From contig OY969554.1 of assembly GCA_963700985.1 (NCBI GenBank), forward strand, positions 1,152,001-1,216,000: a stretch of DNA of 64,000 nucleotides, written 5' to 3'. The position numbers and the translations under genes were made by a program. This DNA is from an uncultured Chlamydiales bacterium. Its GTDB lineage: Bacteria > Chlamydiota > Chlamydiia > Chlamydiales > Rhabdochlamydiaceae. Within the stretch, counting starts at the first letter, position 1, and each line of letters starts with the position of its first letter. The notes below the pieces were generated by a model that saw nothing but the letters and a program-made list of their open reading frames with translations, ran no database searches and had not been told where the DNA came from. Positions 39,558 through 63,870 of this stretch are shown here, in pieces.

Positions 39558-41243
39558 TTAAGGCGCTTGCTCGACGTTTACCGGAGACTGCTCTATTTGC
39601 TCTGAATAAGGAGCGGGAACATCTTGGCTTTGGCTTAACTTACGATAGTCTTCAAACGAATGAATGATGTGAGGGCGAACGAAGATAATAATATTTCGTT
39701 TCTCATCGCGTTCTTTCGTCTTGCTAAATGCTGCCCCAATAACAGGCAGGCCGCCCAAACAAGGAATGCCGCTCTTATGGTGGGATTTGGCATTACGCGC
39801 CATCCCGCTCAACACTAAGAAATGCTTATCGGGAATATGCACATGCGTCACCATATTCGCCTTGGTGGTTCGAATACCGTTTACGGCTGAGCTAGAATTA
39901 TGCAGATCTCCCATGCTTTCGGTGATCTCTTCGTTGATGTCGAGAGTAATGACATCCCCTTCGCCTAGCATAGGTGTAATACTTAAGTTTACCCCGATGT
40001 CGCGATATTCGATATTGGCCGCAGTCTGCTGAGTTTGACCGATCGTCTGAATGACAGATCCTGTGAATGGAATGTTGTCACCGACAAAAATGGTCGAATT
40101 CTTGTTATCCTGCGTGATGATCTTCTGATTCAAGACGATTGTACTGTCGCCGTCCATCTGCAGAGCAGAAACTAAAGAACCTAGAGTAAGATAGGATTTG
40201 CCTTTGTGACGGATGATGTCACCAATTACGCCTAGATCAAAACCATTCCCCAGTGGAACCTGGCCGAGGCCCGTCGGTGTGCTATCGGCATTGATCGATT
40301 TCATGGTTGAAGCAAACTGCTGGCCGCCGTGATCGGGAGAAAAACCTCCCATTCCAAAGCCTAGCTTATCTTTATATTTGCCACCCAAAGCCCACTCAAG
40401 GCCAAATTCCATCGCTTTGCGCACATCGGTCTCAATTACCAATACCTCAATGAAAACTTGGCGTAGAGGCACATCCAGAGAGCTAATCAGCTTTTTTAAA
40501 GCGACAATGGTCTCAGGATCTCCAGAGCAAAGGAGAGAATTTGTCATCTTTACCCACTGCATGGATTGAATGGCGTCGAGCAGTTTGGTGGGTTTTTCGG
40601 GTTGATTGTGTAGATCAGCGGCGATTTTTTTGATCGCCTCATCGATTTCAGCACCTTGATGATATTGTAACTTGTAGACAAAGAACTCTCTTGGCTCAGA
40701 AGGAGTAGCTGAAGGAGCAATAGCCGGTATAATAGGAGGCAGTGCAGGCGTTAAACCTGTTAGGACATTAGCAGGCGGTTGTGTTTTTGCCAGCTCTTGC
40801 AAAGGAGATGGGATAATAGCTTCTTCGACTTTCCTTCTCTCATTAGAGGCGTGATGCGCATCTTTAGACTCTTTTCCACCTTTATGAATGACATAGTAAT
40901 CCTCTTCGCGAGTGACACCCATTCCATGCATCTTGAGCATTTGGATAAGCGCCTTCAGCACATTTTCAGAGGCGACCGGCCGGCCTGATGCAAGCGTGAT
41001 ATTGAATTCAAGTTCTTTACTATTAAAGATGAAGTTCACTTCTGAAATGCGACTAACAAATCGAATGACTTCGATTACGGGCACGTCATTAAAATTGATC
41101 GTGTGTCCGCTCTCTTCTTTTACGATCACGTCTTCAGATGGTGACGCTAAGTCGTCATCACCCAAAGCCATAATCGGCATAACAAAGAGCAGTCCAATTC
41201 CAAGAAGATGTTTTGTGTTTAGTATCGTCATAATTTGTGGCAC
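39558..41243 (-). CDS. Secretin (SctC/GspD family), chlamydial CdsC-like
   Basis: INFNDV...IRFVSRIS..NFIF, LD.PLRQVFIE, EYRDIGV.L.ITP, GIPCLGGLP.IG.AF. Confidence 0.88.
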   Translation of the reverse strand: MPQIMTILNTKHLLGIGLLFVMPIMALGDDDLASPSEDVIVKEESGHTINFNDVPVIEVIRFVSRISEVNFIFNSKELEFNITLASGRPVASENVLKALIQMLKMHGMGVTREEDYYVIHKGGKESKDAHHASNERRKVEEAIIPSPLQELAKTQPPANVLTGLTPALPPIIPAIAPSATPSEPREFFVYKLQYHQGAEIDEAIKKIAADLHNQPEKPTKLLDAIQSMQWVKMTNSLLCSGDPETIVALKKLISSLDVPLRQVFIEVLVIETDVRKAMEFGLEWALGGKYKDKLGFGMGGFSPDHGGQQFASTMKSINADSTPTGLGQVPLGNGFDLGVIGDIIRHKGKSYLTLGSLVSALQMDGDSTIVLNQKIITQDNKNSTIFVGDNIPFTGSVIQTIGQTQQTAANIEYRDIGVNLSITPMLGEGDVITLDINEEITESMGDLHNSSSAVNGIRTTKANMVTHVHIPDKHFLVLSGMARNAKSHHKSGIPCLGGLPVIGAAFSKTKERDEKRNIIIFVRPHIIHSFEDYRKLSQSQDVPAPYSEQIEQSPVNVEQAP

Positions 41244-41363
41244 GCCACGAACATAATAAGACGACCCGTTCTTTTTTTAATAGTAATTTTGAAAAATTTT
41301 TCACTTCCTTGCTAAAAATTTCCATTTTCCTGATAATTGACACGCGACCTGGAGAAAATTTTC

Positions 41364-41873
41364 ATGAAAGCTACAACTATCGACAATCTTGATATGCGCA
41401 TCCATGAGCGCTACGCTCAGGATCAGCAGGCTCTCGATAAGACGTTTATTACTGAAGCACAGCTTCTTTCCCCAAGCTTCGAAAAAGTAGCCACCTCTTC
41501 GATTTACTCTTCTAAATGGGAAGAGCTGTTTGAGATGGGTGTGAAAAATTTGCCATGGGCGGCTTTCTCTCCTCCTCCATCTTATACACGTCAGCCTAAC
41601 CGTTTCTTTTCATACCGGATTCTTCCTTCTATCTTCGTTGAAGCAAGCGATGAGGATGGAGAGCATGATGCGCAAGAAGAAGATCAAGAAAAAGAAGAGA
41701 ATAAAAACGAGATCTTGAAGAAAGCGCTGAATGTCATAAAAGGAAAGAATGAAGATACTTTTCTCTTCGAGCGCGACAAATCCGCAGTCGTCACGCTCCT
41801 CCAGACCGTCCTCAACCTCAACCACATCCTCACCCAAATCAACTCCCGCAAACTCCAATATCAGAAGGGATAG
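41364..41873 (+). CDS. Chlamydial DUF5399 (CT273-like) protein
   Basis: WAAFSPPPSY, acidic stretch, C-terminal SRKLQYQKG; family recalled from memory. Confidence 0.55.
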   Translation: MKATTIDNLDMRIHERYAQDQQALDKTFITEAQLLSPSFEKVATSSIYSSKWEELFEMGVKNLPWAAFSPPPSYTRQPNRFFSYRILPSIFVEASDEDGEHDAQEEDQEKEENKNEILKKALNVIKGKNEDTFLFERDKSAVVTLLQTVLNLNHILTQINSRKLQYQKG

Positions 41874-41914
41874 ATAAAGAAGATATATTGGGTACGTTTT
41901 TTCCTCCTGTTCTC

Positions 41915-42422
41915 TAGACATGTCGGATGGTGCGTCCCGAGGGCGCACCTCCCGCGACCACCTTGAGCCTCACCTCGCTTTGCCAAACCGCGTCCTCGAA
42001 GGCGGAGTGTACACAGTACAACTCCGCACGCCCTTACGGGCTCTTCTGCGGTGCGGTTTTGCTTTGCGATCTGAGGCCATGGGCTGCTCGAGCGCTCACT
42101 TCCCACACCTATCGGTGCGGGCCCCTCCTCGCGTCATCTTGCAGTACCAATTTAAGAAAGCAAGATCTGTTCGTAATGCTTAGAACAGTTCTGCGAAAGG
42201 ACGTGGAAGGGGCCCCAAGCGAAGCTAATGGGGAAGGAAACGCTTTGAGCAGCCCGACGACTCAGATCGCAAAGTAAAATCGCAGCGCAGGAAAGCCGAT
42301 AGGCGGCGGGACAGTGCACTGCACGGACCGCTTCCGAGCACGCGATTTGACGAAGCGAGATGAGGCGCAAGAGAGGCAGCGGGAGACGCGGACACACTAG
42401 TGCCGTGTCTCCGACATGTCTA
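41915..42422. mobile_element. 508-bp GC-rich fold-back (palindromic) element with 13-bp terminal inverted repeats
   Basis: TAGACATGTCGGA (41915-41927) / TCCGACATGTCTA (42410-42422); internal arms pair around ~42168. Confidence 0.75.
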
Positions 42423-42472
42423 AATTTAACTAAAAAGAAGCTATCTTCTCCATACATCTATCTCCCAAAAAC

Positions 42473-43603
42473 TTATGCACTTTTGGAGTGAGGGGCCATG
42501 AGGATGTAGGATTCGAGCTCGTTGAGGCTGAGGGGGAAGTTTTTGTGGCCAAAGCCGATGCGCACGTGGCGCTTGCCGTATTCGTAGCAGGCACTGGGCA
42601 CGAGCAGCGCTTTAGTCTTTTCCATGAGATCTGCACAAAAATTCACCGCATCAGCTCTTTTTTTCAGGTGGAGCAGCGCCACACATCCCGCTTGAGGCAT
42701 TTTGCAGTCGAAAAGATCGTGGTACTTCTTTACGAAGTCATGCAACAGCTCTGCGTTGCTACGAACAAGCGCTAAGTTATGTTTGAGAATCTTCTCTCCA
42801 TGTCGAAGTGCAAGTTCTGCGAGAAACTCCGAGGTGCTGCTGCCTGCAACAGTTGTGTAATCTTTAAGTGCCAAGATCTCATGCAGAAGGATCTTTTCTT
42901 TGGTGGCAAGCCACCCTAAGCGCAATCCAGGCAGACCATAAGCTTTCGACATCGAGCCCATGGAGATTCCCTTCTCATAGATATCACAAAACTTAGGCAA
43001 ACGCTCTTGGGGCTCATGTTCTAAACCTGAATAGGTCTCATCGCAAAAGACCAGCAGGCCATTTTCGCGTGCGATTTCTACAATATCAAAGAGCTTCTTA
43101 GAAGGAAGCAAGTAGCCCGTAGGATGCGCAGGCGAGCTCATGATAAGCAAGCGCGTATTTTTGTTGATCAGCTGCTTGAGTTCTGCCGGATCCGTTTCCC
43201 AATCTTTATCTTCTTTAGATTCCCAAAAAGTCACGTCGCATCCGAGCGAGCGTGGAATTTCATAATACGGCTGGAAGCAAGGGGTCTGGACAATTATATG
43301 ATCCCCTTTTTTTAAGGCTGTCATCAAGAAGAGAAAAATCGCTTCTTCTGAACCTGTTGTAACTAGCACTTGATCGGGGTTAATCTGTGTGTATTCTTTA
43401 GAGATCGTCTTACGCAAAGCTTCTCCACCTTTAGGGGGAACGTAGCCCAGCTTAAGCTCTTTAAATTGCTTCTCCGCGCTCTTTTCATATCCTAATAATT
43501 CGCCAATTGAAAGAGGCTCGCAATCGGAGGTCGATAGCGAATAGGGCGAAGCGAATTCATACTGCTCAAAATATCTCAAGAGCTTGTAATGCGGAAAGTG
43601 CAT
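42473..43603 (-). CDS. Aminotransferase class I/II, PLP-dependent
   Basis: TTGSEEAI, P.HPTG, DETY, SMSKAYGLPGLRLGW. Confidence 0.9.
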   Translation of the reverse strand: MHFPHYKLLRYFEQYEFASPYSLSTSDCEPLSIGELLGYEKSAEKQFKELKLGYVPPKGGEALRKTISKEYTQINPDQVLVTTGSEEAIFLFLMTALKKGDHIIVQTPCFQPYYEIPRSLGCDVTFWESKEDKDWETDPAELKQLINKNTRLLIMSSPAHPTGYLLPSKKLFDIVEIARENGLLVFCDETYSGLEHEPQERLPKFCDIYEKGISMGSMSKAYGLPGLRLGWLATKEKILLHEILALKDYTTVAGSSTSEFLAELALRHGEKILKHNLALVRSNAELLHDFVKKYHDLFDCKMPQAGCVALLHLKKRADAVNFCADLMEKTKALLVPSACYEYGKRHVRIGFGHKNFPLSLNELESYILMAPHSKSA

Positions 43604-43690
43604 AGGTATTCCAGGGTTATTTATTTGGTTCTTTAATCCCCTGTTACCAGAGCACAAATTAGTAAACAATAGAAGGTCTATTGGATTGAG

Positions 43691-43730: not shown

Positions 43731-44939
43731 TTAGAAGTTGAAGTCAGCATGCAAGGTCAAACCTTGAAAGCTCAAATCTCCATGCGAAGGCACAACAGTG
43801 AGGATATCATCATCGGAGGCAGTTATCCCTGTTGCGACGTCTAAAATACGGCCATCATGGGAAAAGGCAAGTTCAAAGAGCTCGTTCTGCTGGAACCACT
43901 CTGAAAGTTCATAGCAAGCACGCAGTGCGATGTGATACTTGTCATTACACAGCCCTTTTTCCCACTGAAACCCAGCCGCCGTTTCGAGGTTAGCACGCAC
44001 ACGGTTGAAATCTCTTTTGACGGTGATATTTACTGGTGTGAGAGTTGTATGGATGTTTGGCCTGAATCCATTAAAACTCTCTTTTACATCAAATCTTCCA
44101 TAATTGAGCGACCCACCAACACGTCCAAAGAATCCCCAACTAGGAGTAAAGTGCCAGAGCAGGTCTGCGCCAGCTACTAACCCACCGCCTTTATACTCTA
44201 AATCGCCCTTGAACTTTGTATGAGCTTCTAAAAAGTCGATAGTAGGAGCGGCGACGGGCGAAAGGTTCAAGAATGTCCAAACGCCATTGTAATTTGCCTT
44301 ATAGTGCTGTTTGATCCACACGCCACGCACACCCATATGCGGACGCAAAGTGATGTTTCGGCTAATGAAGTAGTCTCGTCCTACTTCTAAATCCAATGTG
44401 TCGAAATTCAGCCTCCAGCGAGCTTCAGCAAAAGAAGCCGTTGGGCCGAGCGCTGCAAACCAGTGAGGAATAAGTTGATGCGATGGGACAGTAGTGACAT
44501 CGCCGGTTGGGAAAGTCGAGCCCGTTCTTCTTTGGTGAGCTTTATCATGAAAATAGGTCCAACCCAGTGTCACATCCCACTGATCGAAGTTTTCAAAGCG
44601 ATAACCCAGAGCCACGCGCGCTCCTGGCTTCCACTCGCCATGGATGTCTAAGTCTTTAGCCTTATAGGTAGTTGCATCAGACGAAACGCGAGCATTAGCC
44701 GCGTAAGCTAGATCATCTTCATCTGCACGCCAATAGAGAAACTCGGCTGCAATAAAAGGGCCATTTGCTCTGAGGTGTGAAGGGTTTTTTCCTCCCCAAG
44801 TGCCGCTGATGTTTTTCTGCGTGCTTTCATCTAGTTGAGTGCGCATATCATTTGAGCCACTGCCATCGGCAAAGAGCGAGCCAGTTAAAGCGATAAGAGT
44901 GGTGAGTGCAAATTTTCCAATTTTTGTACTACGTGACAT
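43731..44939 (-). CDS. MOMP-like / Lpg1974-family outer-membrane porin
   Basis: Signal peptide, EFLYWRA, W.PG.R..GY, GDLSFQGLT...F.F C-terminus. Confidence 0.8.
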   Translation of the reverse strand: MSRSTKIGKFALTTLIALTGSLFADGSGSNDMRTQLDESTQKNISGTWGGKNPSHLRANGPFIAAEFLYWRADEDDLAYAANARVSSDATTYKAKDLDIHGEWKPGARVALGYRFENFDQWDVTLGWTYFHDKAHQRRTGSTFPTGDVTTVPSHQLIPHWFAALGPTASFAEARWRLNFDTLDLEVGRDYFISRNITLRPHMGVRGVWIKQHYKANYNGVWTFLNLSPVAAPTIDFLEAHTKFKGDLEYKGGGLVAGADLLWHFTPSWGFFGRVGGSLNYGRFDVKESFNGFRPNIHTTLTPVNITVKRDFNRVRANLETAAGFQWEKGLCNDKYHIALRACYELSEWFQQNELFELAFSHDGRILDVATGITASDDDILTVVPSHGDLSFQGLTLHADFNF

Positions 44940-63806: not shown

Positions 63807-63870
63807 ATAGACATGTCGGGGGTTCGGAGAGGGACACGTGAGTGCTCTCCTGAACCCCCGACATGTCTAT
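63807..63870. repeat. 64-bp miniature palindrome with the same termini as the 508-bp element
   Basis: ATAGACATGTCGGGGGTTC...GAACCCCCGACATGTCTAT, perfect 19-bp IR. Confidence 0.85.

Follow-up and report, generated by a model that had tools for sequence, protein, structure and literature searches.

A chlamydial contig contains a segment of DNA whose two halves appear to pair with each other from end to end, and the question it raises is whether such a structure is a mobile repeat or an RNA gene kept by selection. The segment was picked out in the 64,000-nucleotide stretch of contig OY969554.1 analysed here (the window), from an uncultured Chlamydiales bacterium of the Rhabdochlamydiaceae, by a reading of the letters alone that left both possibilities side by side. 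The features on which the argument draws are listed below, with coordinates in the window.

41915-42422, no strand: the foldback element as a whole (508 bp), a repeat copy that is both non-coding and non-autonomous, judged from its structure and from copies in its own and related genomes
41915-41927, + strand: left terminal inverted repeat TAGACATGTCGGA, 13 nt, 100% complementary to the right one; its first 12 nt are the conserved terminal motif of the family
42410-42422, - strand: right terminal inverted repeat, the left motif on the opposite strand
41929-41949, no strand: left subterminal local hairpin, "module A", a stem-loop in the fold immediately inside the terminal repeat
42385-42409, no strand: right subterminal local hairpin, "module B", from the fold and module typing
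41915-42154, no strand: left arm, homologous to one of the long terminal arms that enclose the transposase remnants in the copy from genome G006 (element positions 37-240 align, 77-78% identity)
42155-42187, no strand: central loop of ~33 nt, the position where longer relatives hold a gene (in the same genome, DUF2442 in a copy of 1,038 bp; in G006, IS5-type transposase remnants)
42188-42422, no strand: right arm, homologous to the other G006 terminal arm (element positions 274-508 align, 74-76% identity)
41967-42077, no strand: palindrome inside the left arm (41967-41991 with 42053-42077), an alternative local hairpin; RNAalifold favours the local pairing, with several pairs changed on both sides
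42258-42367, no strand: palindrome inside the right arm (42258-42283 with 42342-42367), alternative local pairing seen with RNAalifold
41337-41873, + strand: upstream neighbour, a DUF5399 protein gene whose stop lies ~41 bp before the element
42473-43669, - strand: class I/II aminotransferase gene on the downstream side, which converges on the DUF5399 gene and stops ~50 bp beyond the element
63808-63869, no strand: a "mini" copy of 62 bp, the second family member in the window; it consists of the two termini plus a short module and folds as a perfect hairpin with 28/28 aligned pairs Watson-Crick

The 508-base hairpin is real, and the coordinates that the sequence-only reading had assigned to it are correct. 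The 13-bp terminal repeats, with TA at both extremes and the palindrome GACATGTC inside them, are 100% complementary (41915-41927 against 42410-42422), and the arms pair around an axis found at 42168.5, where a near-constant axis of ~42168 had been proposed. The pairing covers 41962-42005 with 42328-42371 (44 nt, 82%), 42039-42089 with 42247-42297 (51 nt, 82%, including the perfect 14-mer 42062-42075 with 42261-42274) and 42112-42126 with 42208-42222 (15 nt, 80%, including the GGGCCCCT pair). The + strand folds at -300.8 kcal/mol against -186.9 +/- 7.7 kcal/mol for 100 shuffled sequences (z -14.7), none of which was as stable, and the - strand folds nearly alike at -305.3 kcal/mol (z -15.4). 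Each arm also holds an internal palindrome, which the earlier reading had missed. The subterminal modules belong to a small number of interchangeable types, and the window copy has a different one at each end. With a GC fraction of 0.59 the element stands above its genome (0.448) and its left flank (~0.43). It encodes no credible protein, as had been supposed: the ORFs inside it are of 81-116 aa, those of other copies vary in position and strand, and many indels separate the copies.

A search for further copies, suggested at the outset as a check, places the element in a multi-copy family dispersed through its own genome and those of its relatives. The 2.07-Mb genome that carries it has eleven, of which three are full copies: the window copy and those at 320 kb and 1000 kb. 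The other eight, grouped as shorter or fragmentary, are a cargo-bearing copy of 1,038 bp, two minis (62-74 bp), a 298-bp form and four fragments or solo ends. The copies diverge by 15-30% from one another. All 11 are intergenic and 10 of them lie 26-98 bp from the 3' end of a gene; where the flanking genes are in tandem, the copy is closer to the upstream stop in 6/6 cases. The cargo of the 1,038-bp copy, held in its loop, is a DUF2442 gene, which was considered as part of the mechanism and set aside, its homologue in G001 being an ordinary DUF4160-DUF2442 pair with no foldback around it.

Beyond this genome, 24 others of the same bacterial family were searched and 11 of them carry the repeat, among them 5/5 of the same genus; it is absent from 16/16 genomes of the order's other families. 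In two congeners exact matches to the terminal 12-mer number 25+22 and 25+28 (~50 each), compared with 0 for its reversed control, and exact terminus pairs are all spaced 46-723 bp apart. Across 18 aligned copies the termini are nearly invariant, with many indels between the copies; size variants span 46-1,314 bp, end modules are swapped and truncated copies occur. The arms are homogenised within lineages, some copies are 95-96% perfect palindromes, and near-perfect palindromes of 470-580 bp are found in some genera. Some arm branches in G001 are only 0-0.02 long, and some copies sit at contig ends, a pattern that suggests recent amplification in relatives. The presence of the element also varies by site: in G003 and G002 the DUF5399 and aminotransferase genes lie ~60-75 bp apart and element-free, sites judged empty by gene adjacency, the intergenic DNA being too diverged for base-by-base alignment.

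No named family had been recognised from the letters, and none was matched in the searches made; blastn of the element against known plasmids and phage or viral contig collections found no match, and of 83 viral loci that contain the 14-mer none resembles the element beyond it. A 14-mer scan of species genomes yields names rather than a distribution, since among the matches listed only 17 of 80 loci are true family members. The element itself was found in five DNA metagenome runs from two studies, with both junctions confirmed by contigs in the best run; no contig in these runs joins the two flanks across the element, and no RNA run is among the runs listed.

We therefore take the element to be a MITE-like mobile repeat, with a probability of roughly 0.85. 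The mobile-unit half of the sequence-only reading is borne out by a family that is multi-copy and dispersed, whose presence varies, which includes deleted and cargo-bearing forms and which is linked to an insertion sequence (IS) in two other genera. The window copy is a decayed copy of a gene-less repeat family dispersed among genomes of one environmental chlamydial family, and as such a fairly ordinary selfish repeat.

The link to an insertion sequence comes from genomes G006 and G022. The 1,314-bp copy in G006 (C72:7544-8857) has an exact TAGACATGTCGG at each end and 269-nt arms that are mutually identical at 258/267 positions, and the two arms of the window element match the G006 arms at 74-78% identity. 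Between these arms lie three collinear transposase remnants, of which one matches DDE_Tnp_4 (27.5 bits, cut-off 24.8) and two match transpos_IS5_4 (positions 160-210 and 213-285 of 285, E 2e-5 and 2e-13). The N-terminal remnant is identical to the transposase of an IS in G022 at 24/48 positions (E 3e-13), and complete metagenomic IS copies match the same three blocks at 45-75% identity. With its 269-nt arms and ~58-nt outer repeats, this is the only gene-bearing foldback copy whose gene is a transposase, and the gene is degraded. A search for a transposase gene bounded by the termini, which the earlier reading had recommended, returned degraded IS5-type remnants in one G006 copy and no intact gene between TAGACATGTCGG termini, that is, no autonomous copy, in the genomes examined.

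In G022 at least eight foldback ends bear a ~58-nt outer repeat, the first ~35-40 nt of which are the terminal repeat of an active IS present at no fewer than ten contig ends; the N-terminus of the transposase of this IS matches HTH_Tnp_4 (E 1e-15). Foldback termini and IS termini both start with TAGAC, and in a hand alignment the foldback terminus of G006 and G022 matches one variant of the IS terminus at 13/17 positions with one gap; the window copy agrees with the foldback motif over its initial ~12 nt only. The family is physically linked to an IS5-type gene and to IS5-type termini in two other genera. The G006 gene could be nested or captured in the loop, as DUF2442 is in the window's genome; two genera share the arrangement in which a ~58-nt IS end lies outside the foldback, which argues against a one-off nesting. 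A candidate inner IS terminus in G006 scored 56 against a shuffled maximum of 51, a difference that is not significant and to which the coding part contributes most. Long arms are not normal for the IS itself, since its normal copies are of ~0.9 kb (903-955 bp) with terminal repeats of 17-18 nt (35-73 nt in a few) and TAGACATGTCGG is found in 0/80 metagenomic loci encoding relatives of the transposase. At the DNA level the IS end occurs in 6 of 30 other genomes of the family, and of these G022 alone has the foldback family.

The genomes that carry the foldbacks were searched for the enzyme itself. DDE_Tnp_4 (PF13359) is present in 2 of the 11 element-bearing genomes, G006 and G022, and gave 0 matches in G000-G005. 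These six represent the window's genus and comprise its own closed genome as well as the two congeners with ~50 termini each. In that closed genome tblastx with five complete IS copies found no match, with a positive control that worked, and the multi-copy ORFs include no transposase-like repeat gene; two near-identical small ORF pairs are, judged by their sequence, ordinary proteins. A regular expression for the IS terminus was discarded there, its 73 matches at 2 mismatches being too loose for meaning. In G001 and G004, 16 unpaired termini were checked, and none has a transposase-like ORF beside it.

On these data the full account that we favour, and to which we give somewhat better than even odds, is that of a MITE-like foldback moved in trans, with an IS5-type partner. 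The element, on this account, is a non-autonomous foldback transposon, composed of two ~240-nt inverted arms ending in TAGACATGTCGG and a ~33-nt loop, with no gene. A transposase supplied in trans would act on the TAGAC termini and move copies by cut-and-paste, with insertion into AT-rich intergenic DNA, mostly shortly 3' of stop codons. The best candidate for this enzyme is a Harbinger-like transposase of the IS5 family (HTH_Tnp_4 plus DDE_Tnp_4, NCBIfam transpos_IS5_4), and we infer that the copies of the window's genus owe their movement to such an enzyme. The near-complete pairing would then belong to the DNA, arising from long terminal inverted repeats with arms kept alike within each lineage, rather than being an RNA structure under selection. 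As no such transposase is present in the genome and the copies lie 15-30% apart, the window copy is taken to be an immobile relic.

The alternative that survives best, and which retains an appreciable minority share of the probability, is that the foldback is a selfish palindromic repeat in its own right. Its contacts with IS5-type elements would then be secondary (an IS or gene nested or captured in the G006 loop, a foldback nested in a G022 mini-IS), and its spread would be due to a different enzyme, since lost or not recognised, or to a palindrome mechanism based on replication or recombination. This would suit the copy-rich G001 and G004 and the window's closed genome, none of which has DDE_Tnp_4, DDE_3 or DDE_Tnp_1, and it would suit the 80 normal IS relatives, none of which has the motif or long arms. 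Capture of a gene in the loop does occur, as DUF2442 demonstrates, and the homogenisation of arms within lineages together with palindromes of 95-96% hints at a hairpin-copying process. Against it, the termini have their TAGAC start in common with the IS, and in G006 and G022 the resemblance to the IS terminal repeat extends inward; the combination of an outer ~58-nt IS end with the foldback architecture occurs in two genera, and no alternative candidate enzyme was found beside any terminus.

The preferred reading, a foldback moved in trans by an IS5-type transposase, might also be taken further. The foldbacks may represent an undescribed IS5-type transposon architecture with two TAGAC cleavage or binding sites per end, one outer and one inner, with long structured arms between them and with the arms copied from each other during transposition, for example via a single-strand hairpin intermediate or by arm-to-arm conversion. 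If true, this would explain the near-perfect palindromes, the concerted evolution of the arms, the 46-74-bp minis and the pick-up of genes in the loop. We regard it as rather doubtful.

The TA at both extremes of the element had suggested an IS630-type target, that is, an IS630/Tc1-mariner MITE that inserts at TA, duplicates the TA and is moved by a DDE_3 transposase. The flanks give this some colour: across 44 copies they are mostly of the form A/TA...TA/T (slashes mark the boundaries), with a left flank ending in A in 41/44 and a right flank beginning with T in 40/44, and four copies in the window's genome have flanks like cTA/TAG...CTA/TAg. The window copy itself is flanked by tc/.../aa, without the usual A...T. 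Nevertheless, TA stands outside both ends in only 3/44 copies, whereas the inner TA is invariant. No copy-specific target duplication of 2-4 bp was found at boundary offsets 0-3 in the 44 foldback copies, nor was one found in 39 IS copies; the sole repeated bases at the boundaries are the terminus's own invariant TA/AT, and because the terminal TA is invariant it is inseparable from the repeat itself and uninformative on duplication. DDE_3 gave 0 matches in G000, G001, G004, G015 and G010, five of the six element-bearing genomes tested, and its two loci in G022 are both without the termini or similarity to the element. The transposase remnants that actually lie between termini are IS5-type. 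The IS630 hint is not supported, and we consider such a MITE distinctly unlikely; a TA target is presumed here for the IS5-type movement. The outer flank consensus is specific to each genome. A palindromic target was also considered and rejected, since the left/right flank symmetry seen across genomes vanishes within them (by permutation, 38 observed in G001 against a mean of 38.6, and 36 against 27.6 in G004, with 347/5000 permutations as high).

Less likely again is a primarily functional role for the structure, as an RNA gene or as a long hairpin under selection, for instance one that terminates transcription in both directions or stabilises transcripts between convergent genes. The fold is very stable, the window copy does lie between convergent genes, 10/11 copies in its genome are near a 3' end, and both-sided changes occur in 34/138 rod pairs and 49/104 alifold pairs. 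Against this, a cmscan search of 41500-42900 against Rfam (E<=1) gave one chance-level match, outside the element; the two strands fold equally; and in 18 copies the share of paired rod cells is 87.2%, compared with 86.0% in the shuffled control, while the covariation score is 0.120 and that of the control 0.106, i.e. almost no covariation beyond the conservation of the arms. The observation that many mismatches are transitions and so compatible with wobble pairing stands for its first half (29/48 mismatched arm positions in the window copy) and needs qualifying for its second, as only 12 of these would be wobble pairs on the + strand (12 G.T, 17 A.C, 19 transversion-type); over 45 copies, with 415 G.T, 396 A.C and 977 transversion-type mismatches, there is no preference for G.T above A.C. 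Two congeners have an empty orthologous site, and variants of 46-1,314 bp with swapped modules and truncations fit a decaying repeat rather than a gene. A comparison of the window copy with the 1000-kb copy, in which 22 substitutions fell at 302 paired sites and 30 at 107 unpaired sites, was rejected as evidence for selection on pairing because the structure had been derived from one of the two sequences compared. Any side effects of the element on termination would be secondary.

Least credible is an identity as a REP/REPIN-type repeat, with a RAYT (Y1, IS200-like) transposase as the agent of spread: the 46-74-bp minis are REP-sized perfect hairpins and Y1_Tnp genes with flanking palindromic repeats occur in G001 and G010, but those repeats are unrelated to the element, these Y1 genes have no TAGACATGTCGG of note within 3 mismatches and no similarity to it, Y1_Tnp has no match in G000, G004 and G015, and the element has symmetric terminal inverted repeats instead of the one-sided GTAG or CGTC tag given for REPs in the portion of PMC3733652 used here. 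A separate REP/RAYT-like system exists in two relatives.

For annotation, these results mean that GC-rich hairpins of this family in environmental chlamydial genomes should be masked as repeats and not called as RNA genes or regulatory signals. Copies lie at contig ends in several metagenome-assembled genomes and so help to account for fragmented assemblies. The family also indicates that this chlamydial lineage once had active cut-and-paste elements, even where the transposase gene is gone. Scenarios of genome reduction for these symbionts have been built on transposase counts (PMC9723776, in the part of that work drawn on here), and such counts would overlook relics of this kind. A chlamydia-native pair of transposase and terminus, if shown to work, could be a possible genetic tool, and the tolerance of 500-bp palindromes in these genomes raises a question about their palindrome-processing nucleases.

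Among known systems, REPs are described in the part of PMC3733652 cited above as palindromes of 20-40 nt with a tag, GTAG or CGTC, at one end. The foldbacks resemble REP/REPIN sequences as hairpin-forming intergenic repeats, with minis of similar size, but differ in their symmetric TAGAC... termini, present even in the minis, in having no Y1 gene linked to them and in full copies more than 10 times longer. With IS5-family, Harbinger-like insertion sequences they have in common the TAGAC start, a degraded IS5-type gene inside one foldback and the IS terminal repeats on the foldbacks of one genus. ISL2-group elements are given as 914-991 bp long, with 19-23-nt repeats and a transposase of ~275 aa that is sometimes in two frames (PMC3196728, in the section relevant here); the first ORF of the transposase relatives found in this work, of ~135-145 aa, fits a two-frame transposase. 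Unlike the normal IS copies, of 903-955 bp with 17-18-nt repeats and TAGACATGTCGG in 0/80 loci, the window element is gene-less and has arms of ~240 nt.

According to the passages of PMC12730594 considered here, relatives in the PHIS superfamily make duplications of 0, 2 (TA) or 3 bp. The eukaryotic PIF/Harbinger ("Tourist-like") MITEs resemble the foldbacks in that the DDE_Tnp_4 fold family is related, non-autonomous copies outnumber autonomous ones and a TA-containing, AT-rich target is plausible; they differ in that the host here is bacterial, a 3-bp duplication is not seen and the foldback architecture is different. Bacterial MITEs are non-autonomous deletion derivatives of insertion sequences, named examples being Correia/NEMIS, ERIC and RUP. 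Like them, the foldbacks are small, gene-less and hairpin-forming, with terminal inverted repeats, dispersed intergenic copies, presence/absence variation and size variants. Unlike them, they are without a demonstrable target duplication and, in most carrier genomes, without a partner transposase; they are longer than most (450-600 bp), paired nearly end to end and GC-rich relative to the host, and they have interchangeable subterminal hairpin modules and arms homogenised within lineages.

The hairpin in the window is a decayed MITE. The end-to-end foldback claimed in the sequence-only reading at window 41915-42422 is present as described, and a repeat finder returns a perfect 13-nt inverted pair at its two ends and inner arms nested on one axis, two of them 44 and 51 nt long (both 82%) and the others 15 nt (80%) and 12 nt (83%). 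As a single strand in either orientation the element folds into one long rod, and none of 100 dinucleotide shuffles approaches its energies (-300.8 and -305.3 kcal/mol; z-scores -14.7 and -15.4). Its GC content is 0.59, against 0.448 for the genome, and each arm contains an internal palindrome that RNAalifold favoured as a local hairpin. Its relatives in the closed genome (G000; 2,067,302 bp) and its neighbouring genes are as follows.

Foldback copies in G000 and genes neighbouring the window element
window 41915-42422: full-length copy (window element)
320128-320595: full-length copy
1000089-1000597: full-length copy
G000:C1:802719-803756 (locus L093, 1085-2122): longest copy, 1,038 bp
window 63808-63869: 62-bp mini (two termini and a short module), a perfect hairpin 54 bp downstream of a 473-aa ORF
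a second mini, 74 bp
other members: one 298-bp form and four fragments or solo ends
window 39558-41243, minus strand: secretin (GspD-like) gene
window 43731-44939, minus strand: Legionella-major-OMP-like protein gene

The search for further copies thus gave three full copies in G000, where identity to the window copy is 73-84% and no member is therefore recent. Among 40 related genomes the family occurs in 11 of the 24 from the same bacterial family, including all five of the same genus, and in none of the 16 from other families of the order; as far as sampled, it is confined to one family of environmental chlamydiae. The genes around the window element (DUF5399, the secretin and the Legionella-OMP-like protein) are likewise in keeping with an environmental chlamydia. 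We counted 47 and 53 exact matches to the terminal 12-mer TAGACATGTCGG in two congeners (reversed control, 0). At the orthologous site, the DUF5399 and aminotransferase genes lie 60-75 bp apart with no element between them in congeners G003 and G002, an empty site at the level of gene order and spacing, the intergenic DNA being too diverged for a base-level one. In congener G001 the same stop codon is followed ~40 bp later by a foldback copy, which we read as a separate insertion because its end modules and downstream neighbour differ. Multi-copy and absent from its site in two congeners, the element is best read as the MITE-like mobile unit, one of the two readings first proposed. No named family had been recognized, and the literature likewise gave no description in the portions consulted, which include parts of PMC9723776 and PMC3733652.

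We collected 44 terminus-bounded copies (18 from G004, 17 from G001, six from G000 and one from each of three other genera), which range from 46 to 1,038 bp and all fold strongly. End modules, local hairpins that fall into a few interchangeable types, sit directly inside the termini; between the window copy and its nearest relative the core is ~85% identical but the end modules are swapped. An A ends the left flank in 41 of the 44 and a T begins the right flank in 40, the window copy being an exception; a palindromic flank symmetry apparent across genomes was gone once each genome was considered by itself. At no boundary offset did we find a copy-specific target duplication of 2-4 bp. Several copies in G001 (L081, L083 and L084) adjoin the same ~45-nt sequence, which includes a hairpin with a 9-bp stem followed by a T-rich run; this sequence is a further short repeat or else a site favoured for insertion.

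All 11 G000 copies are intergenic. A gene 3' end lies 26-98 bp away in 10 of them, and between tandem genes the upstream stop is the closer one in 6/6; only the latter bias is suggestive, since about three quarters of intergenic regions hold a 3' end anyway. The copies might affect transcript termination or stability. Three truncated copies (1580596-1580893, 2058470-2058547 and 721827-721970) lie within a few kilobases of genes from a single large paralogous protein family (ORFs 1576890-1579100, 2059796-2062597 and 713330-716632 among them), which may be chance.

The foldback is a DNA palindrome and not an RNA structure. A structured RNA kept by selection had been offered as the alternative, with mismatches fitting wobble pairing. 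Over 45 copies, arm mismatches comprise 415 G.T, 396 A.C and 977 of transversion type (12, 17 and 19 in the window copy), and therefore neither wobble pairs nor one strand is favoured. Across 18 aligned, oriented copies, 87.2% of cells are paired in the rod, compared with 86.0% when partners are shuffled among sequences, and the covariation score is 0.120 against 0.106 for the shuffles; Rfam gave no match for the window element. The RNA reading is not supported. Arm-to-arm complementarity is 72-87% in copies longer than ~160 bp, barring two at 95-96%, and 86-100% in the four minis. A tree of 68 arms clusters by genome, with both arms of one copy as sisters in three genera; the arms have therefore been homogenized or re-made at the DNA level.

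The mobilizer is unproven; the candidate with the best support is an IS5-type transposase. In G022, from another genus of the family, at least eight foldback ends carry an extra ~58 nt outside the motif, again starting TAGAC. The first 35-40 nt of this outer stretch recur at no fewer than 10 contig ends and lead into a ribosome-binding site and an ORF whose first 110 residues match HTH_Tnp_4 (E 1e-15) and NCBIfam transpos_IS5_4. This IS5-family insertion sequence, seen in a metagenome-assembled genome from contig ends with no full copy assembled, terminates at least 10 contigs (L336, L342, L346, L350, L353 and others) with ends 98-100% identical, and is apparently active. DDE_Tnp_4 occurs in five of the 24 family genomes, none of the window's genus, and one match lies exactly between two foldback arms (G006:C72:7544-8857, in another genus). 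That copy bears the exact motif at each end, and its 269-nt arms (258/267 identical) enclose three collinear IS5-type transposase remnants, broken by a small nested palindrome. The palindromic insert (L369 ~1790-2060), bounded by a ~17-nt inverted repeat within the degraded gene, probably represents another mini-repeat family. Both arms of the window element align to the G006 arms (74-78% identity over ~220-235 nt each), with a ~33-nt loop in place of the ~780-bp centre.

The G006 copy may be a long-armed IS, or equally a foldback whose loop has captured an IS or had one nest in it. Capture in such loops does occur. The 1,038-bp G000 copy holds a DUF2442 gene (Pfam E 1e-23) whose G001 homologue belongs to an ordinary DUF4160-DUF2442 pair; a ~60-bp direct duplication of arm sequence from next to the loop flanks the G000 gene, which looks to have been captured by the element. 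The search for a gene bounded by the motif, proposed earlier, gave the G006 remnants. None of 16 unpaired termini has a transposase-like ORF beside it, and exact paired termini are 46-723 bp apart in all pairs.

Other enzymes fare less well than the IS5-type transposase. G000 has no multi-copy transposase-like ORF. DDE_Tnp_1 is absent from four of five genomes tested, its sole match (G010) being unlinked to the termini. The IS630-type origin suggested earlier is not supported: DDE_3 is absent from five of six element-bearing genomes tested and unlinked in the sixth. Y1 transposases were rejected, as they are present in two relatives within their own unrelated palindromic repeats. These IS200/RAYT-like genes, one inside inverted arrays with 176-nt arms at 76% (L238, G001:C1:322386-325715) and one flanked likewise by 57-nt arms at 96% (L237, G010:C33:13709-17053), represent a REP/RAYT- or TIRYT-like system of these chlamydiae that is distinct from the foldback family.

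The normal form of the IS was taken from 80 metagenomic loci encoding relatives of the IS5-type transposase. Most of the 45 TIR-bounded matches (one locus counted twice) span 903-955 bp, most have terminal repeats of 17-18 nt (consensus TAGACYTCTTYSGAAAC), and the first ORF encodes ~135-145 aa; a few 1.4-kb forms have composite ends of 35-73 nt with an inner TAGAC site. Since the normal IS has short terminal repeats and none of the 80 loci carries TAGACATGTCGG, the long arms are peculiar to the foldback family. For Harbinger relatives, duplications of 0, 2 (TA) or 3 bp are reported in the part of PMC12730594 consulted. The metagenomic IS copies match the published form of ISL2-group elements, as far as given in Table 2 of PMC3196728.
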